A stretch of 64,000 nucleotides of DNA from an uncultured Methylococcaceae bacterium (GTDB lineage: Bacteria > Pseudomonadota > Gammaproteobacteria > Methylococcales > Methylococcaceae): assembly GCA_903857165.1 (NCBI GenBank), contig CAIODU010000219.1, positions 5,172 through 69,171 of the forward strand. The letters are read 5' to 3'. Both the position numbers and the translations under genes were made by a program. The notes beneath the pieces were generated by a model. It was not told the DNA's origin. It saw nothing but the letters and a program-made list of their open reading frames with translations, and did not search any database. This document shows positions 15,140 to 56,622 of this stretch, one piece after another; the first letter of the stretch is position 1, and each line of letters starts with the position of its first letter.

Positions 15140-18124
15140 CTAAACAACAGGGGCAGAACACAACACCACACGGAAGCCGAGGTTGCAGTTGCGGTCGCCG
15201 GGTCGATACCCGAAGCGGACGGCACAACGGGCGCCGTCTTGAAGGCTGCGCCAAGAACCGCCCCGCACGACCCGGTCCGCTTCGCCTTCCATGCCCTTCC
15301 GTTCCGGCTGGTCATATTCATTCAAACACCATTCCCAGACATTGCCCGCCATATCCAGTGCGCCAAAGGGTGATCGGCCTTGCGGATATAGGCCGACCGC
15401 CGAAGTTTGCTTCAAATAGTGCGGCCCGGCATAGTCATAAGTTTCGTTGATGTTGGCATAGCCTAATTGGAACTGCCCCCAAGGAAACTCAAGCTTCTCA
15501 GTCCCTCGCGCCGCCTTCTCCCATTCCTGTTCGGTGGGCAGTCGGACCTCGCAACCTAAACCATATGAAAGCCAGCGACAAAAAGCCACCGCATCAAACC
15601 AACGCACTGTCTCACGCGGATGATTCGAGTAATCCCATGTTGGTTCTTCGGGCTGATCAAACCTTCTCGCCAATCCCTCCCACCACTGAGGGTTGCTGTA
15701 GCCTTCAGCATCGTCGATGAAGGCTTGAAACTGGCAATGGGTCACCGGATAACGGGCGATATGGAAGCCAGGTAGCGTCAGCATTTCCCCGTCTTGAAAG
15801 ATGAACGGCCCGGCGGGCACTTCCACCCAGTCAATATCGGGAATAGGTCGGCGAAGCTTGGAATCGTAACGCAAGGCGACACCGGGGCGATTGTCTAGTG
15901 GTACACCATCCAAAGTCAGCATAGCCAAAGCGCGACCGAAAGCGGCTCTGGCTTCGGGTTCCGGGTCACGCTCAAGATCGGTCAGTATCCAATCCTGCCG
16001 TAATTGCCCCAATGTTTCATTGGGTGTCAGTGCGCCACTATTGAGTATGCATTGCACGGTAACTTCGGGCTGTGCTTGTTTCAACCAGTCGATGACCGGC
16101 GTACAATTGGCGGCATAAAACCCGGCCAGTAGCACGGCGGATTCTTCCCAGCTTGTGCGTTCCCAAGCATTCGGCCAGCGTCTTTCCGCTGGTAATTCGC
16201 CGCGTTCTAAACGTGAACGCAGAACTCTTGCGGTGAAATACTCTTGCAGTAATTGGTGGGTGAAGCGCACCTCGCGCTCGCCCACGTCCAGCAGGCTGGC
16301 GGCGGAGGCACGATATAACAGGCTGTCTTCCACCCATTCGGCAGCGTCCGCCCGTGACAACACGGTGAAGGCTTCGGTGTTGTCGTACTTGGACTTTCGC
16401 CGGGATTGCAAGGCCCACGCCAGATTTTCCAATGCCGCCAACAGAGCCTCGCCTTCTGTTGTGGTGCGCCATTCCTCTGTGTCTTCTGCTAGATGTTCGC
16501 GTAGCAGCAGCACCTGTACGAAACCGTCGAACAACGAGGCCCGGTTGGCGGGCAATTCGCCTGAACCGATATACACTTGGGTCAACATGTACAGCAAATA
16601 GGGATTGCCGGCCAACCACATCAGGCTGCGCGGGTCATGCACCGCCTTGCGCCAAATCTGGTCTTGTCTACCGCTGGTATTATCATAAATATTCGGATCT
16701 GATTTTGGCACGTCCTGTGCCGACCAGAACAACGCCCAATCTGCCCCGGCTTTCTGCCAAACCCGCCACACCTCACGCACTGGGTCGCCGCCGGCCAGCC
16801 GCCAGAACAAATTCTCGCCGAGTTCCCTGCCCCTTTCCTGAATATCATGTTGAGCGTAGGGCGGCAATCCTTTGCCGCCATCAACTTCCGAGTTACATTC
16901 GTCGGCATTGGGATGCCGACCTACCAAACTGTTGTTTTGCGGCCCATTCACCCGGATTCCGCCAGAGGCTCCATCCGGGCTACTTTGCTCTATCGTCGCA
17001 CTCAGGTAAGCAGTGACAAAATCGAGGATACGCGGCGGGTCCAAGGGTCGGATGGTGACGGTGTCCAGCCCTAAATCCAATGCGCCGGTGTAGTCCAATT
17101 CGCGGCAACTCACCAATGCCGGCAAGTCTTTATTATTTTCCAAGAACGATTTGGCCAAGTCCGCTTTCGCCGCTCGATCAGTGAAGGGGACTTCGTTCAG
17201 CCCGTCCAGCAGCAACACGGTTCGCCGGGTTTTAAGCAGCGGCTCCAGATAATCGCCCAGTTCTCCTAATTCGCGCTCGACAAAGGCCTGGAGAGGCTCA
17301 TCAGACGTCCATTTGCCAAGCCGGATCAGCAGCGGCAACGGGGCCGACGGGTCGGCTAGCGCATGGTCTGCGGCGTCCCGCGCCAGCTTCCATAACGTAG
17401 TGGTTTTCCCCGCCCCCGGCTCGCCCAATAGCGCGGCACGGCGCACCTCGCCGAAGACCACCATAATATCGTCATAACTACGCGGCTGTTTTGGCGGCTC
17501 GTCGGCGTGGGCGGTGATCCGGCACAAATGGCGGAATTCCGGGCGCATGACCACAGAAGGCAAAGGGGCCGACGCTTGGCTTTTGGCACTCACCTTGGCG
17601 ACCCCGGCCATGGGTGTGTACAACTCGGTATGCACCAGTTCGCCCAACTGCAAACGGCGAAGATAGGCCAGTTCGGCTTGCCTTTGCTTGCTTTCGGTGG
17701 GTGTCGGGGTTATTACGGGTTTGGGCAACGAAGCCAACAAGCGGGTCAAGCCAGTGTCATAGTCAGGTTCAATCGGGATGGCTTGGCGGTCGGCCATGTA
17801 CCAAGGCAGTAGGCAGCCCTTGGTCAGCAGGGGAATGATGGGTTTGCCGAGTTGTTTCGCATGAAGGAATTCCAGCCGTACCCATTCGCTGCGGTTGGCG
17901 GCTTCCGTCACCAAGGTGACAACGGCATAAGCCCGTTCCAAGCCCTCGGCGATGGCTTTAATCCAAACCTCTCCGCCGGGGATGTCAGTGGTATCCAACC
18001 AACACGGATGGCCGGCCTGTTCCAAATCGTCCAGCAGCCGGTCCGCTATGGCGCGGTCGGTGCGGGAATAACTCAGAAATACCACCGGGCCAGTGGTGTT
18101 GGTTGGTCGGGCAGCAATTTTCAT
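15140..18124 (-). CDS. STAND NTPase: N-terminal TIR domain, NACHT P-loop NTPase, helical region, C-terminal FGE/SUMF1-fold (formylglycine-generating-enzyme-like) domain
   Basis: 994 aa. TIR: VVFLSYSRTDRAIADRLLDDLEQAGHPCWLD...NRSEWVRLEF, with the putative catalytic Glu at aa 85. Walker A is GEPGAGKT (aa 234-241) and Walker B is TVLLLDGLNE (aa 302-311). The FGE fold spans aa ~763-992 (RYPVTHCQFQAF, RLPTEQEWEKAARG, GALDMAGNVWEW, RVVRGGSW, LGFRVV). Confidence 0.9.
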   Translation of the reverse strand: MKIAARPTNTTGPVVFLSYSRTDRAIADRLLDDLEQAGHPCWLDTTDIPGGEVWIKAIAEGLERAYAVVTLVTEAANRSEWVRLEFLHAKQLGKPIIPLLTKGCLLPWYMADRQAIPIEPDYDTGLTRLLASLPKPVITPTPTESKQRQAELAYLRRLQLGELVHTELYTPMAGVAKVSAKSQASAPLPSVVMRPEFRHLCRITAHADEPPKQPRSYDDIMVVFGEVRRAALLGEPGAGKTTTLWKLARDAADHALADPSAPLPLLIRLGKWTSDEPLQAFVERELGELGDYLEPLLKTRRTVLLLDGLNEVPFTDRAAKADLAKSFLENNKDLPALVSCRELDYTGALDLGLDTVTIRPLDPPRILDFVTAYLSATIEQSSPDGASGGIRVNGPQNNSLVGRHPNADECNSEVDGGKGLPPYAQHDIQERGRELGENLFWRLAGGDPVREVWRVWQKAGADWALFWSAQDVPKSDPNIYDNTSGRQDQIWRKAVHDPRSLMWLAGNPYLLYMLTQVYIGSGELPANRASLFDGFVQVLLLREHLAEDTEEWRTTTEGEALLAALENLAWALQSRRKSKYDNTEAFTVLSRADAAEWVEDSLLYRASAASLLDVGEREVRFTHQLLQEYFTARVLRSRLERGELPAERRWPNAWERTSWEESAVLLAGFYAANCTPVIDWLKQAQPEVTVQCILNSGALTPNETLGQLRQDWILTDLERDPEPEARAAFGRALAMLTLDGVPLDNRPGVALRYDSKLRRPIPDIDWVEVPAGPFIFQDGEMLTLPGFHIARYPVTHCQFQAFIDDAEGYSNPQWWEGLARRFDQPEEPTWDYSNHPRETVRWFDAVAFCRWLSYGLGCEVRLPTEQEWEKAARGTEKLEFPWGQFQLGYANINETYDYAGPHYLKQTSAVGLYPQGRSPFGALDMAGNVWEWCLNEYDQPERKGMEGEADRVVRGGSWRSLQDGARCAVRFGYRPGDRNCNLGFRVVLCSAPVV
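16856..16924. repeat. REP doublet (REPIN) inserted in frame inside the TIR-NACHT coding sequence
   Basis: GTAGGGCGGCAATCCTTTGCCGCC, 21 nt, then GTCGGCATTGGGATGCCGACCTAC. The element is 69 nt, which equals codons 401-423 (VGRHPNADECNSEVDGGKGLPPY). It has the same architecture as the intergenic copy at 15040-15107. Confidence 0.85.
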
Positions 18125-26015: not shown

Positions 26016-26489
26016 TCATTCCATTTGAGGGTTGCTGGTTTCATTGGCGGGGTTGCTTGATTCATGCGGCCGGCCGGCTTCCAACTGGTCGAGTCTTGCA
26101 TGCAAGCGTTTGAGTTCTTCGAGAATCTGGCTTTCATCCCTTGCCATCCCGCCCATGTCGCGTCCAATGAGAACAGTGGAAAAGATCGCGGTCAGCAAGG
26201 CAAGCACGGCCAAACCGAACAAAATCAACAAGCATGCCAAAGTTCGCCCAAAGAAAGAGGTCGGTACCACATCGCCGTAACCGACATGGGTCATGGTTAC
26301 CCAAGCGTACCACACTCCGTCCGAAAATGAGTGAACATTCGGGTCAATGAGAAAAACCACAAAGCCAAATAAGAGTGAGATGCCCATGGCGAAAAAGAGT
26401 ACATAACCGAGGCTCTTTTGCTTCAACATTTCAGTTTTAAGACTTTGAAGCCATGTCATGGCATTTTGCAGAAATAGACTGTTCATCAT
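26016..26489 (-). CDS. two-TM potassium channel (KcsA-like pore) with a C-terminal coiled coil
   Basis: The selectivity filter is TMTHVGYGD, between two TM helices. Confidence 0.8.
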   Translation of the reverse strand: MMNSLFLQNAMTWLQSLKTEMLKQKSLGYVLFFAMGISLLFGFVVFLIDPNVHSFSDGVWYAWVTMTHVGYGDVVPTSFFGRTLACLLILFGLAVLALLTAIFSTVLIGRDMGGMARDESQILEELKRLHARLDQLEAGRPHESSNPANETSNPQME

Positions 26490-26525: not shown

Positions 26526-28742
26526 TCAAATTGAATTATAATTGTTTTTTGGAAGGCTAATCAATGAAAACAATCTCCTAGGAATAAAACGGCTACAGAA
26601 CCCCAGTATCAAGGCCATTTTGAACCTCCGGGTGACACGATTGAGCGATAGATAGCCATTCCATATCCTCGACCAATTTTTTTCCGCCATGGCAGTTCCG
26701 CCCAAAGACAAAACCCCGTCCATGTATAACTGGATTGCTTCGCATGCCACGGCAGCATGACCGCCGGCAAGGTTGTCAATGGAAAGGTGCAGCGTAACGA
26801 TGAGCGGGTTGATCTTCCAATAACGCAACTCCTCCGCCAAGTGCATATACCCCCCCCCAAGCCCGCTCAATTCGATAGCCAGGTTAAGGCCGAGTATTTC
26901 GGGAAGATACGTTCCCGGGAACTGGGAGATGGCAAGAAGGTAGCTGGGCAAGTCAAAGGATGCATCGAGAAAATCAGGATGACAGGCGAAATCCATGGTT
27001 TCAGTCGATGGCAGTTCAATTGCCAATTCATTGAGCAAGTCGCGATAAATTTTGGGATGGTTCCATTCGACGATTCCCTCCCCCAATTCCTCCGCATAAA
27101 TTCGGTATAGGAGACGCTGAAGGCGTTGGCCCTGATGCACCGCTTCTCCCATGTGCTGCAACCAGCAACCATCGACAAGAATGGCCGGGGCAAACTGGCG
27201 TATGCCCCAGATGAACTCTTCCCGGCGCAATGTTGGCGGTGCTTGAAGCGGTTTGTATTTGGCAATCTCCACTTCGTGAATTTGCACTATGCGCTCCGCA
27301 AAGTCAGCCGGGGAGTAATCAAACAATCGCTGATTAAGCGGGCCTATGCGATGCCTGGCGAGGAATGCGCGGGACAAGACTTGATCCACACGCCGTTGTG
27401 CCAGGGAAAGGGTCGAAGTTTGCGTGTCTTCGTTGATCAATAAATTGAACAGGCCACGGTTGTCGATACGGCCAAACACTGGAAGGGTGAGGGATCGGTT
27501 CAGGCGGAAGTTCGCCATCCCGTTGCACCCGGCATTCTCCGGTTTTTTCCGCTCCCTCGGGTGGGGAAAAGCTAGCATTCCCGCGCTCGCCGAAAAGGGA
27601 TGATGCGCAGGGTGTAGCCCATCGGTGACAGTGGCCCCCGCCACGGCTGCCTTATGCCAGTCATCCGCCTCATCCAACCAAGCGTTAATCAAATCCAACT
27701 CATCCCCATCGAATACGCCGAACATCGGTCCGCCAAAACGGGTCATTCGGTCGAACGGGCGATGGCCCTTTTCGCCTTTGACATAAATGGAAGAGGCGAA
27801 GGCATCGAGGAAGCCAGATGCGTCAAAGGGCGACTCGGCAAACCATTCTTCCAATGCCCGACCGCCCAATTCAACCCCTGCATGATAACCACGCGCGAGC
27901 CGCAGTTTGCGGCGGAAAATTAAAGCCACTCCTTCCACCGGCGATACGCTTCTATCGGCAAAGGTTTGCAAGTCGCTTAAGTAGCGGGCTTCATGATTGT
28001 TATACAAGGCGAAACCCTTACATAGCCTAGGCCATTCCTCGCTATCGACGGCAAAGGCTTGCAATGCGCCTTCGCATTGTCCGGTCATGGTTGTCAGGAT
28101 GGCATCACGCCTAGGTGTAGGCAGGGCTGGCAGTCTCCATGGCGATACGCTTTTCGCATAAGCCAAGGTGAACCCCAATGTCTCCGGGAAAAAGCTCGAC
28201 GAACGCAATCCAAGCGCCAATTGCAGACTGGCGAAATGTAGCGCCGACGCCCCAACGCGAAGGTTATGGGCAAAGCACCATGCCGATGCCTCTGGCATGC
28301 CAATTTGGCAATTGTTCAGCCAACCACGATAGGCAAAGGCAGGGGAATCCGACTCATCCTTGCCAAGCAGCGTCAGATAGCAGGCGAATAATTTATTGAC
28401 AGGTTCCCTGTGTCCGTTGGCGGCAACAGCCACTGACTGCAACCAAGCCCCTTCCAGCAGGGCCAATGGGGCATGGAAGGCAATCAAATCAGCATTGTTG
28501 CCGGGTCCGGGTTTGGGGAAATCGGTCAACCCTGGGATTTCTGCTGTCCCATCCATGGCCGTGCCGGTTTGGTCAGGGTGACAGCCCAACGCCGAACCCG
28601 CTGGAGTATCGGCTAACAGGCGCAGCAACCATTCCTTTGCGCCGGCCAAGGTTTCCGGGTTTTCCCGGGCGTTGGCCAAACGATGGAACCATTCGCGCAG
28701 TGACGCTTCTTCTCCCACGATGGGCATGAATTTTCCACTCAT
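26526..28742 (-). CDS. tandem heme-oxygenase-like (iron-containing redox enzyme, Haem_oxygenas_2-type) protein
   Basis: 738 aa. The C-terminal half carries IYAEELGEGIVEWNHPKIY (E-x6-H), LAIELSG, and HLSIDNLAGGH (H-x3-D-x5-H). The N-terminal half shows similar helical spacing but lacks the E-x6-H element. Confidence 0.6.
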   Translation of the reverse strand: MSGKFMPIVGEEASLREWFHRLANARENPETLAGAKEWLLRLLADTPAGSALGCHPDQTGTAMDGTAEIPGLTDFPKPGPGNNADLIAFHAPLALLEGAWLQSVAVAANGHREPVNKLFACYLTLLGKDESDSPAFAYRGWLNNCQIGMPEASAWCFAHNLRVGASALHFASLQLALGLRSSSFFPETLGFTLAYAKSVSPWRLPALPTPRRDAILTTMTGQCEGALQAFAVDSEEWPRLCKGFALYNNHEARYLSDLQTFADRSVSPVEGVALIFRRKLRLARGYHAGVELGGRALEEWFAESPFDASGFLDAFASSIYVKGEKGHRPFDRMTRFGGPMFGVFDGDELDLINAWLDEADDWHKAAVAGATVTDGLHPAHHPFSASAGMLAFPHPRERKKPENAGCNGMANFRLNRSLTLPVFGRIDNRGLFNLLINEDTQTSTLSLAQRRVDQVLSRAFLARHRIGPLNQRLFDYSPADFAERIVQIHEVEIAKYKPLQAPPTLRREEFIWGIRQFAPAILVDGCWLQHMGEAVHQGQRLQRLLYRIYAEELGEGIVEWNHPKIYRDLLNELAIELPSTETMDFACHPDFLDASFDLPSYLLAISQFPGTYLPEILGLNLAIELSGLGGGYMHLAEELRYWKINPLIVTLHLSIDNLAGGHAAVACEAIQLYMDGVLSLGGTAMAEKNWSRIWNGYLSLNRVTRRFKMALILGFCSRFIPRRLFSLISLPKNNYNSI

Positions 28743-30490
28743 GTTGCCTCCGGTTTGGCGAACAGCCAGTCGCCGATGATTAATAGGTCAAGCCCGCTGG
28801 TCATGAAAACGGCCACTGCATCCTCCACCGAATGGACTATGGGTTTGCCCATGACGTTGAAGCTGGTGTTCAGCAAGAGGGGTATCCCCGTTTCTTGGTG
28901 GAAGGCCGTGAGCAAGCGGTGAAATGCCGGGTTCCACTCCTGTTTGACGGTTTGCAAACGTCCTGTCCCATCGACATGAACCACGGCAGGGACTCGTGCC
29001 GCCGCCTCGGGGCGGAAACGCAGGGCTTGCTCCATGTAAGGGGTCTCCCGGTAATCCTCAAAATATTCATGGCCATATTCATGCAGGATGGAAGGTGCGA
29101 AGGGGCGGTAATCCTCGCGGAATTTAACGCGGTCGTTGATTCTCGACTTCATGCCAGGATCGCGGGGGTCGGCGAGGATGGAGCGATTACCCAGTGCACG
29201 GGGACCGAATTCGGCCCGTCCTTGCACCCATCCAACCAATTTGCCCTGGGCCAGCAGACGGGCGGTTTCCTCACAAATCGTTCCGGGTAAATGGCGGACA
29301 TCCATCCCTGCGGAAAATCGCACCAAGCGTGCCAGCGCCTCGTCGGAAAATTTGGAACCCAAATACGCCGACATGGGAAAAGACGAACTCGGAAAGTATT
29401 TTCGCTCGCGGGCAAAAGCCAGCCATGCCGCACCCAAGGCTGTGCCATCGTCCGCCGGGGCAGGGGGTATGTACAATTTGCTGAAACGGGTTTTGCTGGC
29501 GATTTGTCCGTTGAACGAGGAGTTAAGCGCACAACCACCCGCCAGGGCCAAATTTTCACTTGGATAATTGTCATGGAAGTTTGCCAGGATTTCAGTCATG
29601 ATTTGGGCAAAATAATATTGCCCAGTGTAAGCCAGGTCGGCCGCCCTCTCTGCGGGGTCGGATGTCGGCCTGCGTTTTTTCTCCAACCCGGCCAAGGCGG
29701 GGAACAATCGACCTTGCGGATGTTCCAAATCCAGGCCGCGTACAGACAATATGTTTTTCAGCAGCTTATAAACCTCCTCGTCGAACCGGCCATAGGGGGC
29801 CAGACCCATGACTTTCCATTCTTCACCCTGCATCCAGTCAAATCCACACAATGCGGTGATGTGCATGTAATATAGTCCCAGGCTGCCAAGGCCGCGTGAT
29901 TCGTGGAGGCGTTCGAGTTTTCCGTTGCGGAATCGGTAGAAACACATTGAACCGTTTTCGCCATAGGAATCCACCACGGCACAGGCAGTTTCGCTGAAGG
30001 GACTGGCGAAACAGGCCGAGGCCGCGTGGGTGTCATGATGGTCGAAATCGCGGAATTCAACCGGGCAAGACGAGTACTGTTCGCCGAGAAGGCGGGTCAG
30101 GTTCAAACCTCCGCGGGCAAGGCTAAGGCGATTGCATGCCATCATGTGGTGGATTTGGCGATTGTCCAAGGGTGATCCCAGTCGCTTGAATCCCTGCCGA
30201 TTGAGTCCTCCCGCACTTAGCAGACCCAGCGCTGACGCGATTCTCTCATACCATGGCCTTTTCTTGCGCCAACTGAAGGCAAGCACGAAGCGTCCGGCAT
30301 CGGGGCAGAATTCACGCAGCAGTCCAGGCAGTCTGGAGGGGATGTCCGGTTCGCAATTGATGGCCCGCTTGTATTGCAGATACCGTTCGCCCGCTTCGGC
30401 AAAGAGGGGGATGCCGTTTTCATCGACGATGGCGATTGCCGGATCGTGGTAAGTCACTCCTAAGCCGATGTAATAGGTTTTCACGGCCAT
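28739..30490 (-). CDS. carbamoyltransferase (NodU/CmcH/TobZ family)
   Basis: YIGLGVTYHDPAIAIVDENG, FDHHDTHAASA, LALAGGCALNS, RAEFGPRALGNRSILADP, LLNTSFN. ATGA overlap with the downstream gene. Confidence 0.9.
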   Translation of the reverse strand: MAVKTYYIGLGVTYHDPAIAIVDENGIPLFAEAGERYLQYKRAINCEPDIPSRLPGLLREFCPDAGRFVLAFSWRKKRPWYERIASALGLLSAGGLNRQGFKRLGSPLDNRQIHHMMACNRLSLARGGLNLTRLLGEQYSSCPVEFRDFDHHDTHAASACFASPFSETACAVVDSYGENGSMCFYRFRNGKLERLHESRGLGSLGLYYMHITALCGFDWMQGEEWKVMGLAPYGRFDEEVYKLLKNILSVRGLDLEHPQGRLFPALAGLEKKRRPTSDPAERAADLAYTGQYYFAQIMTEILANFHDNYPSENLALAGGCALNSSFNGQIASKTRFSKLYIPPAPADDGTALGAAWLAFARERKYFPSSSFPMSAYLGSKFSDEALARLVRFSAGMDVRHLPGTICEETARLLAQGKLVGWVQGRAEFGPRALGNRSILADPRDPGMKSRINDRVKFREDYRPFAPSILHEYGHEYFEDYRETPYMEQALRFRPEAAARVPAVVHVDGTGRLQTVKQEWNPAFHRLLTAFHQETGIPLLLNTSFNVMGKPIVHSVEDAVAVFMTSGLDLLIIGDWLFAKPEAT

Positions 30491-30535
30491 TGGGATATTT
30501 TGTCAACACATTGGAAGGAATAATTTGTAAGAGCC

Positions 30536-31666
30536 ATGACCAGTTCCCCGCTAAGCATCGGAAGGGTTTCCGCTTTCGTAAATCTTGGGTTGGCCCGCGT
30601 CGTGCGAATCTGGGCCGAGCGTCTATTGTGTTTCATTTTGCCACTTTCCACATTCCTTTTTTTGTCCACAGCCCCCCATGCCTGGGATGCCGCGTTATTG
30701 TGGACTTTGCCAGTCTGGCTGTGCATCGCTGCCGATTACTTCAGCCCTGCCGACCGCAGCATGCCGAAACCTTGTGTGATTGAATGGTTATTGGACGCCC
30801 GTGTTTATGTTTTGTTCGCCTTGCAAATCGCCAACATTGTTTTGTTGCTGGAAGTGTCTAGCCGACTGGCGTGGGGAACACCGTTCGATTTTGCCACGAG
30901 CGCGGCCAACATCGTTGCCCTGCGCACCCTGGTTGGGACAAGTTCCTGTTGCTCAGGGATAGCCGTCGCCCACGAATTGCTCCACCGCCAGTCGAAACAT
31001 TTGCGCTGGATGGGTAGAATACTGCTTTGGACGGTATGTTACGACCATTTTGCGTTGGAACACGCCCACGGCCATCATCGCAGGGTGGGAACTTCCGCCG
31101 ACCCCGCGACGGCCCGCCATGGCGAAAACTTCGCCAGTTTTTTCAAACGTTCGGTTACCGGCCAGTGGGCCAATGCTTGGCGGTTGGAGAGGCAAAGGCT
31201 GCAACGGCATGGAGGGCTTGGGCTGTCATTGCGCCACCGTGTGCTGCATGGGGTGGCGATAGAACTGGTTTTGCTGGTTCTGATAATGGGGCAATACGGT
31301 TTCGTCGCGCTGATTATGTTTATTTATCAGGCCGTGGTTGCCGTGCGGATGCTGGAGGCGGTCAATTATCTTCAGCATTGGGGATTGACCCGCCAGGGTT
31401 CCAGATTGGCTGGCAATTGTGCCTGGGCCACCGACTCTTGGTTCACGCTGCACACCTTCATTGGCCTGTCGCGCCATGCCGACCACCACACCCACGCCGG
31501 CAAACCCTGCTATCGCTTGCGTCATCGCAGTGAATGCCCAAAGCTCCCACACGGCTATTTTTTTATGTTCATTATGATCCGTCTGTTCAACGCCCGTTAC
31601 ATCGAGATTGCCAGCCAGCAGTTGAGCGAAAAAAAACTCGGTCGGTTCCATTGCGGCCAAGCCTGA
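30536..31666 (+). CDS. AlkB-type integral-membrane di-iron hydroxylase (fatty acid desaturase superfamily)
   Basis: His boxes HELLHR, EHAHGHH, NYLQHWGL and LSRHADHH appear in the AlkB order, with multiple TM helices. It is divergent from the carbamoyltransferase gene across a 45-bp gap. Confidence 0.8.
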   Translation: MTSSPLSIGRVSAFVNLGLARVVRIWAERLLCFILPLSTFLFLSTAPHAWDAALLWTLPVWLCIAADYFSPADRSMPKPCVIEWLLDARVYVLFALQIANIVLLLEVSSRLAWGTPFDFATSAANIVALRTLVGTSSCCSGIAVAHELLHRQSKHLRWMGRILLWTVCYDHFALEHAHGHHRRVGTSADPATARHGENFASFFKRSVTGQWANAWRLERQRLQRHGGLGLSLRHRVLHGVAIELVLLVLIMGQYGFVALIMFIYQAVVAVRMLEAVNYLQHWGLTRQGSRLAGNCAWATDSWFTLHTFIGLSRHADHHTHAGKPCYRLRHRSECPKLPHGYFFMFIMIRLFNARYIEIASQQLSEKKLGRFHCGQA

Positions 31667-31799: not shown

Positions 31800-32807
31800 A
31801 TGAATCCACACCCATTCCACCACGGCAAAGTTTTTATCGCGGGTCTTTTGGCACTTGCGTTTGCCAGCCCTGCCTGGGCCGGCCTGCATAAATGTGTGGA
31901 CGAAAAAAACCGTACCTATTATCAGGATAAGCCCTGCCAAGAAATGATGGCGACGAGATTGCCAAACAGCTTGGCAACAATGGGGGCAAAAGAAGAAAAT
32001 CGGGCTTTTTTTTGGAAGGCGACGGGGGGGAAGGGAACGTTCTATTTGCTAGGTTCCTTGCATTTTGGTGCAAAATCCCCGATTAACTTGCCGCAAATGG
32101 TCACCAAAGCCTTCAACGAAGCGGATGTGTTGGTGGTGGAGGCGGATATCGAAACGGTAAGCGGCAAGGAAATGGCCCGTGTGACTCGAGGCAAAGGCCT
32201 CTATGCCGACAACGGCAAGCTCGAAGACCATATCAAGCCGGTCACTTGGAAAAAGACGGTGGAGATTGCCAACAAAGTGGGGTTCGACGAGGAAGCCTTA
32301 CATCCGCTTAAACCGTGGCTTGCCACCTTCACCCTGACTAACCAGTCGTTCAAACAGCAGGGTTACACGGCGGAATTTGGCATAGACAACCTATTGATTC
32401 AGCGAGCCCAAGGCAAAAAGCCCGTTATGGAATTGGAGAGCATAGAGGCTGAAATCGATTTGATTGACCAATTTTCAGACCAAGAACAGGAGCAAATGCT
32501 GCTTCAGACCTTGAAACGGCTATCCCAAGGGGCCGATTATCATAAGGACATTATTAATGCCTGGGAGGAGGGTGACGCGGAAGCAATGGACTTGAGCGTC
32601 CGGCAAAGCTTCGATCCTGGGCCGTTAGGTTCCAAACTGTACAAGACATTCCTGCTCGACCGCAATGAAAGGATGGCCAACAGGCTGGTGGATTTGGCGA
32701 ATGATGGCCGGACTTATTTCGTCGTGGTGGGTGCCGACCATCTGGGCGGTGAAAAAGGCATCCTGAAATTGCTTGCCCAAAAGGGCTATTCAATCACCCA
32801 GCCCTGA
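31800..32807 (+). CDS. secreted TraB/GumN family protein with an N-terminal DUF4124-like segment
   Basis: Signal peptide, then HKCVDEKNRTYYQDKPC, then FFWKATGGKGTFYLLGSLHFG...VVGADHLGGEKGIL. Confidence 0.7.
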   Translation: MNPHPFHHGKVFIAGLLALAFASPAWAGLHKCVDEKNRTYYQDKPCQEMMATRLPNSLATMGAKEENRAFFWKATGGKGTFYLLGSLHFGAKSPINLPQMVTKAFNEADVLVVEADIETVSGKEMARVTRGKGLYADNGKLEDHIKPVTWKKTVEIANKVGFDEEALHPLKPWLATFTLTNQSFKQQGYTAEFGIDNLLIQRAQGKKPVMELESIEAEIDLIDQFSDQEQEQMLLQTLKRLSQGADYHKDIINAWEEGDAEAMDLSVRQSFDPGPLGSKLYKTFLLDRNERMANRLVDLANDGRTYFVVVGADHLGGEKGILKLLAQKGYSITQP

Positions 32808-32887: not shown

Positions 32888-33892
32888 TCAACCCCCGGTC
32901 GCGCTCATATGGCGGAATATGACCGGCTTTTCCGTGAGGTCAAACTCATGCTTTTCTGGCTTGATACGCATAGCCTCGACGATGGCGGTTTTAAGCTTGC
33001 CAACATCATTGGGGTTGCCCCGCAACACCCGTTTCAAATCCACTGAATGCTCGTTGCCTAGGCATAATAGCAAACGGCCTTCCGCCGTCAGCCGGACACG
33101 GTTGCAGTCCCCGCAAAAGTTGTGGCTGTGGGGGGAGATGAAACCGACTTTTGTATCCGATCCTGCGACGCGAAAATAACGGGATGGCCCGCCCGTGTTG
33201 GCGGTGTCGGGCAACAGGGTGAAACGCCGTTCCAGATCGGCCCTGATTTGGTCGCTTGAATAATATTCCTCGGCGCGGTCATGGGAGTCAACCACGCCTA
33301 AGGGCATTTCCTCGATAAAGCTTATGTCAATCCGCTTGGCGACGGCAAACTCCACCAAGTTGCCTATCTCTTGATGATTCCGGTTTTTCAGTATCACGGC
33401 ATTGAGTTTGATGCGCTGGAAACCGGCGGCCATCGCCGCATCAATGCCCCGCAGCACGGTGTTCAAGTCGCCCACCCGCGTCATCTGCTTGAATAGCGTT
33501 GCATCCAAGGTGTCCAGGCTGATATTGATGCGTTTGATGCCACACGCTTTCATTTCCCCGGCCATGGTTTCCAATTGCGAGCCGTTGGTGGTCAGCACCA
33601 ATTCACGCAAGCCCTCCATGCGGCCAATTTTCCTCAGTAAATCCATGGCCCCCTTGCGCACCATCGGCTCGCCGCCAGTGATGCGAATCTTGTCCACGCC
33701 CAATCCCACAAACGCCCGGCAGACCGTCTCGATCTCTTCCAAGGTCAGAATTTGCCCCCTAGGCAGGAAGGTCATGTCCTCGCTCATGCAATAGATGCAA
33801 CGGAAATCGCAGCGGTCGGTGATGGAAACACGCAGATAATTGACGATCCGCCCAAAGCGGTCAATGAGCAGGGGAGGGGGGTTGGTAGTCAT
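32888..33892 (-). CDS. moaA: GTP 3',8-cyclase (molybdenum cofactor biosynthesis)
   Basis: YLRVSITDRCDFRCIYCM is the radical-SAM CxxxCxxC motif. The C-terminal motif is FCGDCNRVRLTAEGRLLLCLG. The start is taken at the ATG at 33892. Confidence 0.92.
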   Translation of the reverse strand: MTTNPPPLLIDRFGRIVNYLRVSITDRCDFRCIYCMSEDMTFLPRGQILTLEEIETVCRAFVGLGVDKIRITGGEPMVRKGAMDLLRKIGRMEGLRELVLTTNGSQLETMAGEMKACGIKRINISLDTLDATLFKQMTRVGDLNTVLRGIDAAMAAGFQRIKLNAVILKNRNHQEIGNLVEFAVAKRIDISFIEEMPLGVVDSHDRAEEYYSSDQIRADLERRFTLLPDTANTGGPSRYFRVAGSDTKVGFISPHSHNFCGDCNRVRLTAEGRLLLCLGNEHSVDLKRVLRGNPNDVGKLKTAIVEAMRIKPEKHEFDLTEKPVIFRHMSATGG

Positions 33893-33987
33893 GTTGATGC
33901 CAAGTCCAAAGGTACAAGTTGCCTTATTCTTACATGTTTGGACGATCTGTCCAAGCTGGAGTTGCAAATAGTTGGACGGTTAGGCCA

Positions 33988-35082
33988 CTATTCACCCTCC
34001 CGTTTTTTTGATGTGTTATCTTTGACACCGATGTCTCTAAGAAAATCGAGGACTGACTTTGCGGCCAGTTCGTAACCCCTGATTCCAAAGTGAGTGTCAT
34101 TCGGGAGATAAACATCCTTTTCCCCGACAGTGATCGCATTGTTCAAAAGAATATCAAGCCTTGGAATGTTAATATTTTTTTCAACCATATTTTGAACAAT
34201 ATTTTCATAATCATGACTATCAGGATTAGCTATGTATTGTCGGTAAGCACTACTTTTATCAGGGATTGACATTAACATAAAAAGAGTGTTCCCATTGGAT
34301 TGTATTGAGTTTTGCAGACTTAATGCCGAACACAAAGTTTTGTCCAAGTAACTGCTATTCCATAATTTACCATCAAACCATGTGCGTAACAAGAGAATGC
34401 GATCACTTTTTTTGTTAGAAAAAAGATCATCCCTAGTTAATAAGAAACTTTTAACTTTTGAATAGTCATCACTAAATAGATATCGCATAAAAGTATTTTT
34501 GAGATAAATAAAAGCATATTTAAAGTTTATATCTGAGAATGGTAAATCTATATTCCGAGTTTTTTCCAAAAAAGGAATGGTTTTTTCAGTATACTTAACT
34601 TTCCAATAAAGTTTAGATTTTTCAATTTCAGTTTTATTACAGACAAAATTTGTAATTAACAATCTATTTTGGAATGCACCCTCGCCAGTCTCAAAAATGA
34701 ATATTCTTGGAGGCTTACTTTTAAAAATAGGATTATTTAAAATATCTTCAAGAGGAGTTTCGTCCCAGTACAATGTGAGAAAAGTCAAGCCAGTCTTTTC
34801 AGATATGAATGATTGCCATAGTTCAGCTTTGGAGAAGGAATCGCCATAGACCACTATGTCATAATATTGATCATAACTTTTATGATTCAAGGATGGGTTA
34901 GCCAGAAACTTTTGTGGGCTTGTCCACCCGAAGTCACGTTCAGAGTACCCTCCCATCCTTGTCAAGTTGCCGTCAATCGGTTGGATATACAGTGCTGTGA
35001 ATACTAATACCGTTATCCCTGATAAAATCAGGATTATTAGTAATAGTAAATAATTCCTTGATGCAGATGTTTCAATCTTCAT
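33988..35082 (-). CDS. AlgJ/AlgX-like (SGNH-like) accessory protein of an MBOAT O-acyltransferase
   Basis: N-terminal TM anchor, VVYGDSFS and LPNDTHFGIRGY motifs, located immediately downstream of the MBOAT gene. AT-rich. Confidence 0.45.
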   Translation of the reverse strand: MKIETSASRNYLLLLIILILSGITVLVFTALYIQPIDGNLTRMGGYSERDFGWTSPQKFLANPSLNHKSYDQYYDIVVYGDSFSKAELWQSFISEKTGLTFLTLYWDETPLEDILNNPIFKSKPPRIFIFETGEGAFQNRLLITNFVCNKTEIEKSKLYWKVKYTEKTIPFLEKTRNIDLPFSDINFKYAFIYLKNTFMRYLFSDDYSKVKSFLLTRDDLFSNKKSDRILLLRTWFDGKLWNSSYLDKTLCSALSLQNSIQSNGNTLFMLMSIPDKSSAYRQYIANPDSHDYENIVQNMVEKNINIPRLDILLNNAITVGEKDVYLPNDTHFGIRGYELAAKSVLDFLRDIGVKDNTSKKREGE

Positions 35083-35104
35083 AAATTTTATGGGTTTTAC
35101 AGGT

Positions 35105-36685
35105 TCAGAATTGATAATACAAAAATTCACTGGATTTTGTGATGTATACCAAGCCAATAAGTGCTATTGTCGCAATACAGACAGACCAAACTGGGTTGGG
35201 TTCCCAGAGTATTTTCGTTACGCTGTTTTTATCTCCACGATATGAGTTTAATGCCGGAAAGTACTTCCCCATGATTTGCTGTGTGTTTGGCATGAACCAT
35301 ATCAGAAACCCAAGATATGACACCATTTTAATCGCGTCCGAATTAAAACCAGTGTCAGACACCCTGGAGTTTAGGTTTTTGAATGAAACTCCAAGGGCGG
35401 AAATAACTGGTTCAAGCGAACCAAATAGGTACTGCCATTCCACAGGCAACGCTATGCCATTTAATCCTAACATTCCCTTGGCCATAAGGATTGCCCCGTT
35501 AAGGTCTTGCGTCCTAAAAAAGGCGATTGAAAAAATAAACGCAGCCATGGTCAATGCGCAACCCATGAAGCGGCCCAGCCAAGTTGACCGCCTCATATCC
35601 TGCCCCAAACTGCGGCGTATATTTCGCCAAATATGGTTGACTGTCAGGTAGAAACCATGGAGTGCACCCCAGATCAAATAATTCCATCCAGCACCATGCC
35701 ATAAACCACCGACCAACATGGTTAGGCTAAGGTTCAACATGAGCCGCCATGATTTTTGCCTGCCATGGCTTAACGGGGTGTAAACATAGTCGCGCAGAAA
35801 ACGGGATAACGTCATATGCCAACGCCGCCAGAATTCAAAGATATTAACGGCTTTGTATGGGGAATGAAAATTTAGTGGTAGCTTAATTCCAAATAGGAGA
35901 GAACCTCCAATAGCCATGTCAGAGTAACCTGAAAAGTCGAAATATAACTGAAATATATAACAGATTCCACCTAGCCATGCCTCAAAAAAAGTTAACGCCT
36001 GTCCCTTCGCCGCAAATGCGAAGAATGTTACTGCGTAGGGGGCTATGCCATCAGCCAAAACGGTTTTTTTGAACAAACCAATAAAAAAAACAGTGATTCC
36101 AACCGCTATATAATCTAGATTTGGTTTATAAATTGATTCTTGGGAGAATTGTGGGATTATTTCTTTATGATGTAGAATAGGCCCAGCGATCAAATGTGGG
36201 AAATATGTGATAAAAAGAGCATAATGTGTAAAGTTATAATCTTGTATTTCGCCTCGATATGCATCAACCAAAAAAGCTATTTGCGTAAAGGTAAAAAAGG
36301 AAATGCCAAGAGGGAGGATAATCTCTCCTAAATTCCAATTTGTCCCAACCAGCGTATTAACATTTTCCATGAAAAAATTAGCATATTTATAATAGCCAAG
36401 TAGGGACAAGTCAACTATCAAACCTGTGAGTAATAAAGTCCTGCAAAGACCGCTTTTAACCCTTTGTTGTTTCGCACTTACTATTCCAGCACCTATGGCA
36501 TAATTAAAAATTATTGAACCTACAAGCAATGGAATATAATGTGGATTCCACCAACCATAGAAAAATAACGACGCGACTACGAGCCATGAAGAAGCAAATC
36601 GCTGGCTAAACCTCCCGATGCTAAAGAATATTACTAAAGTGATAGGGAGAAATAAAAAAATAAAGGGATAGGAATTAAATAGCAT
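35105..36685 (-). CDS. MBOAT family O-acyltransferase (AlgI/DltB-like)
   Basis: MLFNSYPFIFLFLPITLVIFF..., FWRRWHMTLSRFLRDYVY, GLWHGAGWNYLIWG (conserved His). Confidence 0.9.
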   Translation of the reverse strand: MLFNSYPFIFLFLPITLVIFFSIGRFSQRFASSWLVVASLFFYGWWNPHYIPLLVGSIIFNYAIGAGIVSAKQQRVKSGLCRTLLLTGLIVDLSLLGYYKYANFFMENVNTLVGTNWNLGEIILPLGISFFTFTQIAFLVDAYRGEIQDYNFTHYALFITYFPHLIAGPILHHKEIIPQFSQESIYKPNLDYIAVGITVFFIGLFKKTVLADGIAPYAVTFFAFAAKGQALTFFEAWLGGICYIFQLYFDFSGYSDMAIGGSLLFGIKLPLNFHSPYKAVNIFEFWRRWHMTLSRFLRDYVYTPLSHGRQKSWRLMLNLSLTMLVGGLWHGAGWNYLIWGALHGFYLTVNHIWRNIRRSLGQDMRRSTWLGRFMGCALTMAAFIFSIAFFRTQDLNGAILMAKGMLGLNGIALPVEWQYLFGSLEPVISALGVSFKNLNSRVSDTGFNSDAIKMVSYLGFLIWFMPNTQQIMGKYFPALNSYRGDKNSVTKILWEPNPVWSVCIATIALIGLVYITKSSEFLYYQF

Positions 36686-53301: not shown

Positions 53302-56300
53302 CTATAATGCCCTGGCAAGCCGGAAACCCTGGTTGTAGAAGGCCCCATCGGTCGTGATCCTGTTACGGTAGGCCGAACGGAGGTACTGCGGGACGTAGTA
53401 CCACGAACCGCCCCGAACCACCCGGCGACTGTCCCCGCCGTCCTCCCAGGCGGAACCGTCGCCGGGGGCACCCTGGTAATCATCATGCCAGCGGTCTTGC
53501 ACCCATTCCCAAGCATTGCCCGCCATATCAGATAGCCCAAACCCATTGGGCCGTTTTTCCCCGACCGGATGGGTCGTGCCTTGGGAATTATTAGAAAACC
53601 AAGCATAGTTATCCGCGTCCGCGACCGATTCCCCCCAGAAAAACTGGCTGGTGCTGCCTGCCCGCACGGCGTATTCCCATTCCGCTTCTGTTGGCAAGCG
53701 ACCGCCCGCCCAGTGTGCAAACCGGCAGGCGGCGTTCCAGTCGATGCCGACGACCGGTTGACGGGCTTGATTAAAGCGCCGGTCGGCCCAGTATTTTGGT
53801 TGTTTTTCTTTTGGGTGGGCTTGCAGGAAAAGCGCATACTCTTCATTGGTGACCGGGTAGCGGCCTAAGTGGAAAGGGCGGATTTCAACCGCGTGCGCAG
53901 GGCGTTCGCTGTCATTCCCCTCGCCTTCGGCTGAACCCATCATGAAGCGCCCGCCGGGGATCAGGATCAGTTCCACTCCGCCGTTGGAGATGCGCGGGAC
54001 AGCGACATCTTTCCAACTTTGTTCAAAGCTGAGTAAATTTTCGAAAAAACGGTGGTTTATCGTTTCGGCCAACGGCTCCATCGTATCCGGTGCCAGCCGA
54101 TCCAAAACTCGTATTGCCGCCGCTTGATTCGCAAACAGAACAGTATAATTGCCGGGTTCTTGCCGGAGAAATTCCACAAACGGGATTGGCGAAAATTCAG
54201 CGGCTTCTTCTAGAATTAAATCCAGAAACGCGCTGTCGTCGGCAAAGCGGGCTTGCTTGAGTGCTTCGGTCATGAACGGCGCGAACAAAGACGGGTTGCC
54301 TTGTGCCAGCAGCAACAAGATGACCTCGTTCCACCAACTTTCGCCATAATGCGCGGCCAGTTCGGACAATGTATCGCGCTTGCCGCCATCCAGTGCTTCG
54401 GCTAAGGCTAGGCGGCGCAACTCGCAAGCGGCAAGGTATTCCTGAAAGCCTAAATGCATGAAGCCATAAACCCCATGGCTCCAACCGGTCAACAAACCGC
54501 TTTCGTCGCGGAGGGTCTGCAAGAATTGCCGGGCATCGCCGTTTCGCCATTGCGTGGCTTTTAGGGCCGGTTCCAGCACCGGGGCCAGTTCTTCGGCAGT
54601 GGCACGGGTGCGTTTGTCCTCGCCATGCAGCCATAGCGCCACAGGTTGCAAGGCGCGTCGGCCAGTTTGCGCGGGGATACTGACCAACAGGCTTCTGCCT
54701 TGCCCGATGGATTTATGTTGTCGCCAGAGTTCCAGCAATACGGCTATGCACTCGTCGTAAAGCTCGTGCCGCCCTTTGGGTAAAATGCCGCCCCGGTCAC
54801 GATGCACCAGGCAAAGATTCGCCAACAGCAAGGGGTTGCGGGTCATCTCAGCCATGCGAGTAGAGCGGGAGTCCGGTTCCCGCAGCCGTTCGACCAACTC
54901 TGCGGCTTTTTCGGTCGCCTTGATTGCGCCGGAGGGTCCGGGTGTGAGTCCAGTCTCCACCGCCTTGTACCAGTTGCGGATGAAGCTTTCCGATTGTTCT
55001 TGGGTCATGGGCCGCAGATGCAGTTCCAAAAAGCCCGCATCCATGAGGCTGTCTTCGTCATATCCGGCAAACCGGCAAGTCACCACGGCAGTGCAAGCGG
55101 GCAACGCTTGGACCGCGCTTTTGATCCATTCGGCGACTTTGGCGCGTTGCTTGGCGTCGCTGACTTCGTCCAGACCGTCGAACAATAGCAGCAAGCGGCC
55201 CCGTTCCAACAACCGCTTGCCAAAGCCTTGCGGCATATTCAGGTGAGGGCTGTCCAAGGTCTTTTCGATGAAAGCGTCCAAGCCGTGGTCCAAATCCTCC
55301 AACTCGCGCAGTGGCAGGAACACCGGCAGCAGATCGTCGGGTAGGCCCAGCCAGTCCGGGCCTTGCCGCAAACAGGCCAGCAACAGCCGCTTCAAATGGG
55401 TGGTCTTGCCCGAACCGGGGTCGCCCAGAATGACGAGGTTATGCCGCTTGCGGGCATGAGCCTCGCGGAAGGCGTCGATGAGGGCGATCTCGGCGGAGCC
55501 ATGACTGCCTAGCTTGGCCTCGGCGTCGGCGGCATCGGCAAACAGGCAAGCGCCCGTCCCGCGCAAATCGACACTGGCTTGCAGCGGGACATACAATTCT
55601 TCCAAGTCGATGGGTACTCGCAGCCTAGTTTTGAAACCGGCCAGCGGGATTTCCTTGTGTTGATTCTCCATGACTTCGCAATAGCGATTTAATTCCGGTT
55701 CCAGGCCAGCGGGTTCGGGCTTGGTTGCGGGTGCAGTGTTGCCGCCAAGCTGTTGTTTACGCCAATCATGCAAGGCTTGGTAGACCATTACATTGAGTTT
55801 GCTTTCCTCAAAGAGTCCGGGCATCTGATCTTCACGGAACTTAGCCTTGAAGTCATCAAGCTTGTCCCGTTTGGCCCCTCGCCCCTTGCCTTGATCAAAA
55901 TCTTTGTCGGGGTCCACCCGAACCGATGCAGCAATCTCAAACATCAACCTAGGCCGCCCGGCCAACTTGGCGGCGTCATATTCCAGTTCGGTGATGGAGA
56001 ATTCCAGGCCATCGGGTATCCAGCCGTAGCGATGGGCGATGATGCCCAGAAATACATCACATTCCCGCGCTTGCCGCTCGCATTCTTCTACGGTGGTGTT
56101 GGCGCTGGCGGCGAAGCGCTCCATGCCGACCGGCAGCATTTTGGCACGGATAATGGCATCTTCGACTAGCTTGCGCCGCTCCTCGTTGTCGAGAAAGGTG
56201 CTGGAAATAAAGACGGTAACGGGCAGGTTGGAAGGCGGGCTAACACCTAGCGGGGAATCTTTCGTGTTACGATGCAATGGGTTCATGACGATGGGTTGGA

Positions 56301-56367
56301 GTGCCTTAGTGCCAAAAATGAAATCGCCCAAGCAGGTGCTGGAGGGTGAATTGTAATTTAAAAACAT
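53302..56367 (-). CDS. STAND NTPase: N-terminal DUF4062-like (TIR-like fold) domain, NACHT NTPase, helical region, C-terminal FGE/SUMF1-fold domain
   Basis: DUF4062-like: VFISSTFLDNEERRKLVEDAIIRAKMLPVGMERF...CDVFLGIIAHRYGWIP. Walker A is ILGDPGSGKTT (DNA ~55399-55428) and Walker B is LLLLFDGLDEV. FGE fold: LIPGGRFMMGS, RYPVTNEEYALF, RLPTEAEWEYAVRAG, GLSDMAGNAWEW, RVVRGGSW, QGFRLA. The track ORF extends to 56619 through REP hairpins. The likely start is the ATG at 56367 or at 56286. Confidence 0.88.
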   Translation of the reverse strand: MFLNYNSPSSTCLGDFIFGTKALQPIVMNPLHRNTKDSPLGVSPPSNLPVTVFISSTFLDNEERRKLVEDAIIRAKMLPVGMERFAASANTTVEECERQARECDVFLGIIAHRYGWIPDGLEFSITELEYDAAKLAGRPRLMFEIAASVRVDPDKDFDQGKGRGAKRDKLDDFKAKFREDQMPGLFEESKLNVMVYQALHDWRKQQLGGNTAPATKPEPAGLEPELNRYCEVMENQHKEIPLAGFKTRLRVPIDLEELYVPLQASVDLRGTGACLFADAADAEAKLGSHGSAEIALIDAFREAHARKRHNLVILGDPGSGKTTHLKRLLLACLRQGPDWLGLPDDLLPVFLPLRELEDLDHGLDAFIEKTLDSPHLNMPQGFGKRLLERGRLLLLFDGLDEVSDAKQRAKVAEWIKSAVQALPACTAVVTCRFAGYDEDSLMDAGFLELHLRPMTQEQSESFIRNWYKAVETGLTPGPSGAIKATEKAAELVERLREPDSRSTRMAEMTRNPLLLANLCLVHRDRGGILPKGRHELYDECIAVLLELWRQHKSIGQGRSLLVSIPAQTGRRALQPVALWLHGEDKRTRATAEELAPVLEPALKATQWRNGDARQFLQTLRDESGLLTGWSHGVYGFMHLGFQEYLAACELRRLALAEALDGGKRDTLSELAAHYGESWWNEVILLLLAQGNPSLFAPFMTEALKQARFADDSAFLDLILEEAAEFSPIPFVEFLRQEPGNYTVLFANQAAAIRVLDRLAPDTMEPLAETINHRFFENLLSFEQSWKDVAVPRISNGGVELILIPGGRFMMGSAEGEGNDSERPAHAVEIRPFHLGRYPVTNEEYALFLQAHPKEKQPKYWADRRFNQARQPVVGIDWNAACRFAHWAGGRLPTEAEWEYAVRAGSTSQFFWGESVADADNYAWFSNNSQGTTHPVGEKRPNGFGLSDMAGNAWEWVQDRWHDDYQGAPGDGSAWEDGGDSRRVVRGGSWYYVPQYLRSAYRNRITTDGAFYNQGFRLARAL

Positions 56368-56402
56368 AGTCCCAAGGGGATGCGCCCTAGCTGTAGTGGC
56401 GA

Positions 56403-56450: not shown

Positions 56451-56507
56451 CGTTAAAATGCCTGTACAAAATAACATTGCCTGAATGAAGTCTCCATACA
56501 CCCCTCT

Positions 56508-56606: not shown

Positions 56607-56622
56607 CGAGGTCACTCAAACC

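Follow-up and report, generated by a model that had tools for sequence, protein, structure and literature searches.

A conserved gene trio of methanotrophic Gammaproteobacteria links a TobZ-type carbamoyltransferase to a two-domain heme-oxygenase-like di-iron oxidase and an AlkB-type hydroxylase

Carbamoyltransferases of the TobZ, NovN, GdmN and NodU type modify sugars, aminocoumarins and ansamycins, and are encoded within large antibiotic or Nod-factor clusters. Heme-oxygenase-like di-iron oxidases (HDOs) such as RohS (9PFW), HrmI (9N1X) and SznF (6XCV) act on free amino acids or aminoimidazole, and AlkB alkane 1-monooxygenase is known from Pseudomonas putida GPo1 and from the Fontimonas AlkB-AlkG structures (8F6T and 8SBB). 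The HDO UndA and the membrane desaturase-like UndB both act on fatty acids and are unlinked alternatives for a single reaction. We describe here a locus in which these enzyme families are encoded together. It occupies positions 26526-31666 of a 64-kb stretch of DNA (the window, meaning the whole stretch analysed) from an uncultured Methylococcaceae bacterium, which originates from a lake-water metagenome, and consists of a carbamoyltransferase gene, the gene for a two-domain HDO and, on the other strand, the gene for an AlkB-like membrane hydroxylase. We found that this trio is a conserved functional unit. We read it as a self-contained, vertically co-inherited tailoring module whose product would be an oxidised O-carbamate on a hydrophobic metabolite, and we assign this reading a probability of about 0.4. 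A preliminary description of the same DNA had stated that no characterised pathway was known to combine a hydroxylase, a carbamoyltransferase and an HDO, and our literature search likewise found none: enzyme combinations, methanotroph terms, protein names and the accessions of the Methylococcus capsulatus Bath homologues returned nothing on the trio, and the supplement of one M. capsulatus transcriptome paper contained no match to it.

The coordinates and features of all three genes given in that description were re-derived from the open reading frame (ORF) calls, together with the ATGA overlap and the 45-bp gap, and were correct. The features are as follows, with lengths in amino acids (aa).

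30536-31666, plus strand: AlkB-type integral-membrane di-iron monooxygenase, 376 aa (Pfam FA_desaturase, PDB AlkB matches, His boxes)
30491-30535, unstranded: divergent intergenic region of 45 bp between the start codons of the AlkB-like and carbamoyltransferase genes (ORF positions)
28739-30490, minus strand: TobZ/NovN/GdmN-type O-carbamoyltransferase (CT), 583 aa (Pfam Carbam_trans_N and Carbam_trans_C, PDB matches)
28739-28742, minus strand: ATGA stop/start overlap coupling CT to HDO (sequence)
26526-28742, minus strand: two-domain heme-oxygenase-like di-iron oxidase (the HDO of this locus), 738 aa (Pfam PF14518, AF2 model, Foldseek)
27645-28505, minus strand: N-terminal degenerate heme-oxygenase-like (HO-like) domain of HDO, about residues 80-366 (HHalign against the C-half)
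27474-27644, minus strand: interdomain linker of HDO, about residues 367-423, variable and probably disordered (pLDDT <50; length-variable in the alignment)
26529-27335, minus strand: C-terminal, predicted catalytic domain of HDO, residues 470-738 (six invariant ligands)

The 3' end of CT is '...gcaacATGAgtgga', which reads '...GCA ACA TGA', and the ATG of HDO lies inside the shared ATGA.

Relatives of HDO were sought in a scan of 185,579 species-level genomes, which found 119, and the best 80 loci were examined (single loci are cited by L number). Neighbours were detected by tblastn for CT and the AlkB-like protein and by clustering of 1135 ORFs from 81 loci. Conservation of CT and HDO as neighbours had been set beforehand as a check on the preliminary description, and it was found: CT was adjacent to HDO in 63 of the 80 loci, and an AlkB-like gene was adjacent in 47. 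Clustering revealed no conserved neighbours beyond the trio in the 81 loci. Three gene orders occur. The AlkB-like gene is divergent from CT-HDO in the window, in M. capsulatus and in Methylocaldum; CT-HDO-AlkB lie on one strand in Crenothrix and Methylomicrobium; and USC-gamma carries HDO-CT with no nearby AlkB. The CT stop codon overlaps or abuts the HDO ORF in 41 of the 42 loci in which a CT>HDO arrangement was cleanly called. The pairwise-identity matrices of the three proteins are correlated (r 0.84-0.93, Mantel p 0.001), a correlation to which shared species phylogeny contributes. The holders of HDO are almost all Methylococcales methanotrophs, namely M. capsulatus (including Bath), Methylocaldum, Methylomagnum, Methylomicrobium, Crenothrix, Methylicorpusculum, Methylumidiphilus, Methylothermaceae and USC-gamma, with a few outside this order (Myxococcales/Polyangia, Kitasatospora and Halopolyspora). 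The surroundings differ from host to host; in M. capsulatus Bath, whose HDO is AAU92343 (Q607W2) and whose AlkB-like protein is AAU92345 (Q607W4), ribonucleotide reductase and VanZ genes lie on one side of the trio and a rotamase/BolA block on the other. The fact that the flanks are replaced while the trio persists, and that the AlkB-like gene has switched sides yet remains adjacent, argues for functional coupling rather than frozen synteny.

A further protein of ~555 aa, which lacks any Pfam match and is hydrophobic in its C-terminal half, was seen in 15 loci in total. It is encoded divergently beside HDO-CT of the USC-gamma type (L045, L047, L049, L051-L053, L055 and L061), in the usual place of AlkB. 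It also occurs in L017 (5194-6765) and L076, and in two Methylomicrobium/Methylicorpusculum loci it lies ~1 kb from CT.

The trio genes are expressed, both in culture and in a lake metatranscriptome, and CT and HDO are translationally coupled and co-transcribed. A lake metatranscriptome contig of 1.4 kb (29610-31010) lies over the 5' ends of CT and the AlkB-like gene, and its depth is the highest in the 13-kb region examined. RNA-seq assemblies of M. capsulatus from four independent studies cover the whole trio at moderate depth relative to its neighbours. All of this RNA evidence consists of assembled contigs, for which quantification is crude and DNA carry-over possible. Some M. capsulatus contigs span the CT-HDO junction. 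We also observed that the lake contig and M. capsulatus RNA-seq contigs cross the 45-bp intergenic region and reach into CT on one side and the AlkB-like gene on the other. DNA carry-over aside, this implies either that the promoters overlap the neighbouring coding regions or that the 5' untranslated regions overlap in antisense.

Each of the three enzymes is, by its sequence, a clear member of a known superfamily, and all three keep the complete catalytic signatures of their families. CT had been described as a NodU/CmcH/TobZ-type carbamoyltransferase, and both Pfam domains, the structure matches and the motifs bear this out. It matches Carbam_trans_N (4.8e-30, 105.6 bits against a curated cut-off of 24) and Carbam_trans_C (1.6e-71, 239.8 bits against a curated cut-off of 27), and in the PDB it retrieves NovN (9S2T, E 9e-74), GdmN (1e-66) and TobZ (2e-63). 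A Kae1-like N-domain with the motif HHDTH (30026-30040; H151, H152 and H155) is joined to a YrdC-like C-domain, an architecture that CT shares with TobZ, NovN, GdmN and NodU along with their metal and nucleotide motifs, and HHxxH, GGCALNS, PADDG, EFGPRALGNRS and NTSFN are kept in 57-59 of 59 homologues. We predict CT to be an ATP- and carbamoyl-phosphate-dependent enzyme that carbamoylates a hydroxyl. Unlike those enzymes with their large clusters, CT is part of a three-gene unit with two di-iron oxygenases. Identity as a NodU equivalog was ruled out (NCBIfam NodU, 173 bits against a cut-off of 1000).

For the AlkB-like protein, the claim of a membrane di-iron hydroxylase with all four AlkB His boxes stood up as well. 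It matches Pfam FA_desaturase (2e-24) and the AlkB structures 8F6T (E 2.6e-38, residues 35-346) and 8SBB (1.5e-34), together over about residues 32-347, which is the whole membrane domain, and belongs to no NCBIfam family. The boxes were located in the sequence:

30971-30985, plus strand: His box HELLH
31058-31078, plus strand: His box EHAHGHH
31364-31384, plus strand: His box NYLQHWG
31472-31489, plus strand: His box RHADHH

Nine His residues and N277 are invariant in 47 of 47 homologues from the module. The likeness to the GPo1 and Fontimonas AlkB enzymes thus extends to the four boxes and to homology over the full membrane domain. The difference lies in the context: the protein has neither a fused nor a neighbouring rubredoxin, alkG, alkH, alkJ and alkK are absent, and the trio is hosted by obligate methanotrophs, for which alkanes are not a growth substrate. 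From this we infer a biosynthetic rather than a catabolic role. A hydrophobic substrate for the trio is plausible, given a membrane enzyme of the AlkB type; lipid, hopanoid or glycosyl genes were linked to the trio in none of the examined loci.

HDO is the least familiar of the three. The family is small, since at E<1e-30 a set of 1.84 billion proteins yields only 623 representatives clustered at 50% identity, and it has no NCBIfam entry. When the 738-aa protein was held against HO-like di-iron profiles, as the preliminary description had suggested, it matched Haem_oxygenas_2 (PF14518; 1.3e-13, 51.6 bits against a gathering cut-off of 28.9), and its modelled fold pointed the same way. Two HO-like halves had been proposed, and at the profile level the halves are indeed homologous (HHalign probability 98.8%, E 8e-17); the Pfam match itself covers residues 515-687 only and lies in the C-half. 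The further wording, a tandem HO-like di-iron protein, overstated the case: the metal ligands are found in the C-terminal half only, and at the equivalent positions of the N-half the alignment has L, S/P and A/K, unconserved, with no di-iron ligand set. The six C-domain ligands, each with its codon checked, are:

27087-27089, minus strand: E552
27057-27059, minus strand: H562
26871-26873, minus strand: E624
26787-26789, minus strand: H652
26775-26777, minus strand: D656
26757-26759, minus strand: H662

These six residues are invariant in the alignment of 78 of 78 homologues, with one E>D exchange, and D524, W527, E615 and N620 of the C-domain are likewise invariant. The spacing agrees with the 3His/3carboxylate pattern described for HDOs (PMC13108848). 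D524 and E615 are extra invariant carboxylates; SznF has a fourth carboxylate ligand (3H/4C). The N-half retains an invariant H287 (27882-27884) and the motif FGGPMFGVF, and in the USC-gamma homologues only its second half, residues ~265-381, remains. HDO is accordingly best described, on its residues, as one degenerate and one putatively catalytic HO-like domain.

The AF2 model of HDO (pLDDT 84.5, pTM 0.83) has a disordered linker. In a Foldseek search of the PDB it found RohS (TM score of 0.69 on the target), HrmI and SznF at the top, with a probability of 1.00, followed by FlcD, BesC and CADD. With RohS, HrmI and SznF the protein shares the helical fold, the 3His/3carboxylate set and SznF-like spacing. 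It differs from them in sequence (13-17% identity), in its ligand-less N-terminal duplicate (738 against about 300 aa) and lack of a cupin domain, and in being partnered with CT. Searches for a sequence link to a characterised HDO, by phmmer and by two PDB profile searches, gave only matches of E~0.06-0.1, to one helix of RohS.

Additional information on HDO comes from loci in which its gene context varies. In Methylocaldum and in one metagenome-assembled genome (MAG) labelled Methyloversatilis, the trio lies inside an extended cluster (3 of 80 loci: L032, L022 and L078) with genes for a TonB-dependent receptor, TerC, a P450, a luciferase-like monooxygenase, a stand-alone adenylating enzyme, a GNAT-like protein, a 564-aa protein with an EgtD-like histidine-methyltransferase domain and a MacB/FtsX ABC exporter (L032 2003-21803, Methylocaldum sp. 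GT1BB). This context resembles a secreted-metabolite or metallophore cluster. The L032 record is called a 5.3-Mb 'plasmid' and is probably a mislabelled chromosome. In a sister clade, found in Myxococcales/Polyangia and on a metagenomic contig (L081 1264-7635; L063, L074 and L075), HDO is followed by genes for an asparagine-synthetase-like (AsnB-like) amidotransferase, an AurF-like di-iron N-oxygenase and a PLD-like protein; in L081 this module adjoins an Lnt-like N-acyltransferase gene. In the clusters for actinonin and matlystatin, the presence of an asparagine synthetase and N-oxygenase gene pair tracks that of the hydroxamate (PMC12130866), and the sister-clade module resembles, by analogy, this hydroxamate-forming logic. 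In Actinobacteria HDO occurs in secondary-metabolite clusters, one of them with a phosphoenolpyruvate (PEP) mutase and a KAS III-like enzyme, another with an O-methyltransferase and three acyl-CoA-dehydrogenase-like flavoenzymes. The former, L070 7971-12058 of Kitasatospora sp., has the HDO homologue directly 3' of the PEP phosphomutase and KAS III-like genes, which suggests a role in a phosphonate natural product. The variant contexts in Methylocaldum, Myxococcales and Actinobacteria together mark the two-domain HDO family as natural-product tailoring enzymes. The recurrent partners of HDO, CT and the AsnB-like enzyme, belong to families that both install a terminal -CO-NH2.

The reaction sequence that we propose for the module has four steps, given in decreasing certainty. 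The AlkB-like enzyme, with O2 and some electron donor, would hydroxylate a C-H bond of a membrane-soluble substrate. CT would then make carbamoyl-AMP from carbamoyl phosphate and ATP and transfer the carbamoyl group to the hydroxyl, giving R-O-CO-NH2. The C-terminal di-iron domain of HDO would activate O2 and oxidise the carbamoylated product, most probably attacking the carbamate nitrogen to yield an N-hydroxycarbamate, a hydroxamate-like metal-binding group. Finally, the ligand-less N-domain would serve as a scaffold, for example as the partner in a pseudo-dimer or as a surface on which CT docks; a structural partner is the simplest role for it. N-oxygenation is favoured because the nearest folds are N-oxygenases and because the sister clade follows installation of -CO-NH2 with N-oxygenation. 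Oxidation at the carbamate nitrogen is the least certain step nonetheless, and on such analogy we regard it as doubtful. In the actinonin/matlystatin pair, too, -CO-NH2 is installed and its nitrogen then oxygenated, as the AsnB-like and AurF-like enzymes of the sister clade would do; in the trio the -CO-NH2 would instead be a carbamate made by a TobZ-type enzyme, and the candidate N-oxygenase is HDO and not a ferritin-like AurF enzyme. UndA and UndB offer a parallel of another kind, an HDO and a membrane desaturase-family di-iron enzyme working on hydrophobic acyl substrates. They are alternatives for one reaction, whereas the two di-iron enzymes of the trio are linked with CT and presumably act in sequence.

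Carried to its end, the proposal would define a new natural-product class: an alkyl or lipid scaffold bearing an N-hydroxycarbamate, or a carbamate N-oxygenated further, which would serve gammaproteobacterial methanotrophs as a membrane-associated or secreted Cu/Fe ligand. We consider this a long shot. To our knowledge these methanotrophs lack methanobactin genes. More speculative again is a variant in which O-carbamoylation of an N-hydroxy group leads through a Lossen-type rearrangement to an isocyanate, and trapping of the latter by methanol to the methylcarbamate lipids of type I methanotrophs.

Several observations weigh against the tailoring module as we propose it. HDO occurs without CT in 15 loci, and the USC-gamma HDO-CT pairs without a nearby AlkB mean that the hydroxylase is not always required or is encoded elsewhere. 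We found no rubredoxin or other electron donor linked to the trio: the motif CxxCG...CPxC is absent from every frame of the 64-kb window, and no conserved small neighbour that might serve as a donor lies within +-10 kb across the 80 loci. The Foldseek E-values are weak, from 2.5e-3 at best to 0.1, and the sequence similarity of HDO to solved HDOs is at noise level, which leaves the type of reaction unreadable from homology. The sister clade has an AurF-like enzyme besides HDO, so that HDO need not be the N-oxygenase there. The order of the reactions, moreover, is an assumption.

One alternative retains the same module and gives HDO a different chemistry: on the carbamoylated or AlkB-derived substrate it would, like UndA or BesC, cleave a C-C bond, desaturate or decarboxylate, or else hydroxylate carbon. 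The fatty-acid substrates of UndA and UndB would fit a hydrophobic substrate, BesC and CADD are among the fold matches, and HDOs as a group catalyse many types of reaction (PMC13108848). We nevertheless judge this alternative unlikely, given that the best fold matches and the sole sequence-level motif match are N-oxygenases and that the partner enzymes in both clades install a terminal -CO-NH2.

A second alternative assigns the trio to the side chain of bacteriohopanepolyols (BHPs). Here the extra C-30/C-31 hydroxyls of the penta- and hexa-functionalised BHPs of methanotrophs would come from the two di-iron enzymes, and CT would make carbamoyl or 'methylcarbamate' BHPs (MC-BHPs). The near-restriction of the trio to Methylococcales suits this idea, 35-O-carbamoyl BHPs exist and the enzymes that hydroxylate BHpentol and BHhexol are unknown (PMC12583986), and methylcarbamate-amino-BHPs occur in all type I methanotrophs tested, by tentative mass-spectrometric assignment (PMC5100885). 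By our own arithmetic O-(N-methylcarbamoyl)-bacteriohopanetetrol is isomeric with the proposed methylcarbamate-aminotriol. Yet shc/hpn genes lie near the trio in 0 of 80 loci, the known producers of carbamoyl-BHPs are alphaproteobacteria and are not among the best 80 of the 119 matches, and the methylcarbamate as drawn has no carbamoyl nitrogen. Methylomonas and Methylotuvimicrobium make MC-BHPs and are not among the named HDO holders, which is suggestive within the best 80 of 119 loci and a word-indexed protein search. A hopanoid role is in our estimation improbable.

We arrive at much the same estimate for the idea that the trio is at the heart of a metallophore, a metal-binding compound secreted in the manner of a siderophore or chalkophore, and does not modify a membrane lipid. 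HDOs build the copper-binding thiohydroxamate fluopsin C, FlcD is among the fold matches of HDO, and the Methylocaldum-type cluster contains a TonB-dependent receptor and a MacB-type ABC exporter. This receptor/exporter context is confined to the 3 of 80 loci mentioned above, however, and is absent from the window and from M. capsulatus, where the trio stands alone among housekeeping genes, as it does in most genomes. No Fur-box-like site was found 5' of CT in 59 loci, in which the best matches had 6-10 mismatches of 19. Finally, it is very improbable that adjacency is inherited synteny only and that the three enzymes serve unrelated processes: although most holders belong to a single taxonomic order and shared ancestry inflates both the conservation counts and the Mantel correlation, the flanking genes turn over completely around the trio, the AlkB-like gene has moved to the other side of the CT/HDO pair and the CT-HDO order is inverted in USC-gamma with adjacency kept each time, and CT and HDO are translationally coupled.

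What is new in the trio is not the superfamilies but their combination. HDO joins a catalytic HO-like domain to a degenerate one, and this two-domain protein is paired with a carbamoyltransferase of the TobZ type; an AlkB-type hydroxylase is linked to them outside any alkane-catabolic context, and the unit is almost confined to methanotrophic Gammaproteobacteria. In lakes, soils and sediments, Methylococcales form the main biological filter for methane, and atmospheric methane is oxidised by USC-gamma. Gene sets confined so closely to these bacteria are few, and the known ones (pMMO, specific hopanoids and sterols) became key biomarkers or targets. The product of the trio could be a new lipid biomarker or a metal-binding metabolite of methanotrophs, and the trio might reveal a carbamate-directed reaction new to HDOs and show what a pseudo-enzyme HO-like domain is for. 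The model strain M. capsulatus Bath carries the trio, and since genetic tools and RNA-seq data are available for M. capsulatus, the question is testable.

In the window, the trio is followed on its 3' side by genes for a K+ channel (Ion_trans_2, 1e-14), for a polytopic membrane protein of 859 aa and for a MASE8-GGDEF protein with a degenerate motif (GDSEF). The preliminary description had named all three correctly, except that its Wzy assignment of the large membrane protein corresponds to a Wzy_C match of E 0.0099 only, below the Pfam cut-off. We rejected these genes as part of the operon, as only the four or five closest relatives have them beside the trio, and the envelope-associated product that they had been taken to hint at has no comparative support, the K+ channel, Wzy-like and GGDEF genes being lineage-specific. 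Small two-transmembrane Ion_trans_2 genes adjoin the trio in 8 loci, in two subfamilies and two arrangements. One subfamily lies 3' of HDO in the window clade (window 26016-26489, minus strand), whereas in three Methylococcaceae MAGs (L015 4299-4724, L016 7320-7745 and L020 7541-8032) a member of the other is oriented divergently from CT. This recurrence may be coincidence or a loose association. On the AlkB side, the trio is flanked by a TraB/PrgY/GumN-family protein with an N-terminal DUF4124 (31800-32807, plus strand) and by MoaA (32888-33967, minus strand), an arrangement seen in the window clade and L028 only (9 loci) and hence lineage-specific synteny.

Elsewhere in the window, two large NLR-like proteins are encoded at 15140-18124 and 53302-56619, both on the minus strand. 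Both have a NACHT NTPase and a C-terminal FGE-sulfatase-like domain; the N-terminus is a TIR domain in one (994 aa) and DUF4062 in the other (1105 aa). The two resemble paralogous sensors of anti-phage or conflict systems. The segment 33988-36685 (minus strand) has a GC content of 0.38, against ~0.53 around it, and carries an MBOAT O-acyltransferase gene (35105-36685) that overlaps an AlgX/SGNH-like gene (33988-35157). The two form a polysaccharide O-acetylation pair of the AlgI/AlgX type, which was probably gained by horizontal transfer. A glycosylation island with a low GC content of 0.39-0.42 lies at the end of the window (59435-63970, minus strand) and encodes a GtrA-like protein, a GT2 glycosyltransferase, an NAD-dependent epimerase, a HAD hydrolase and an FkbM-type methyltransferase with a PglD-like N-domain.

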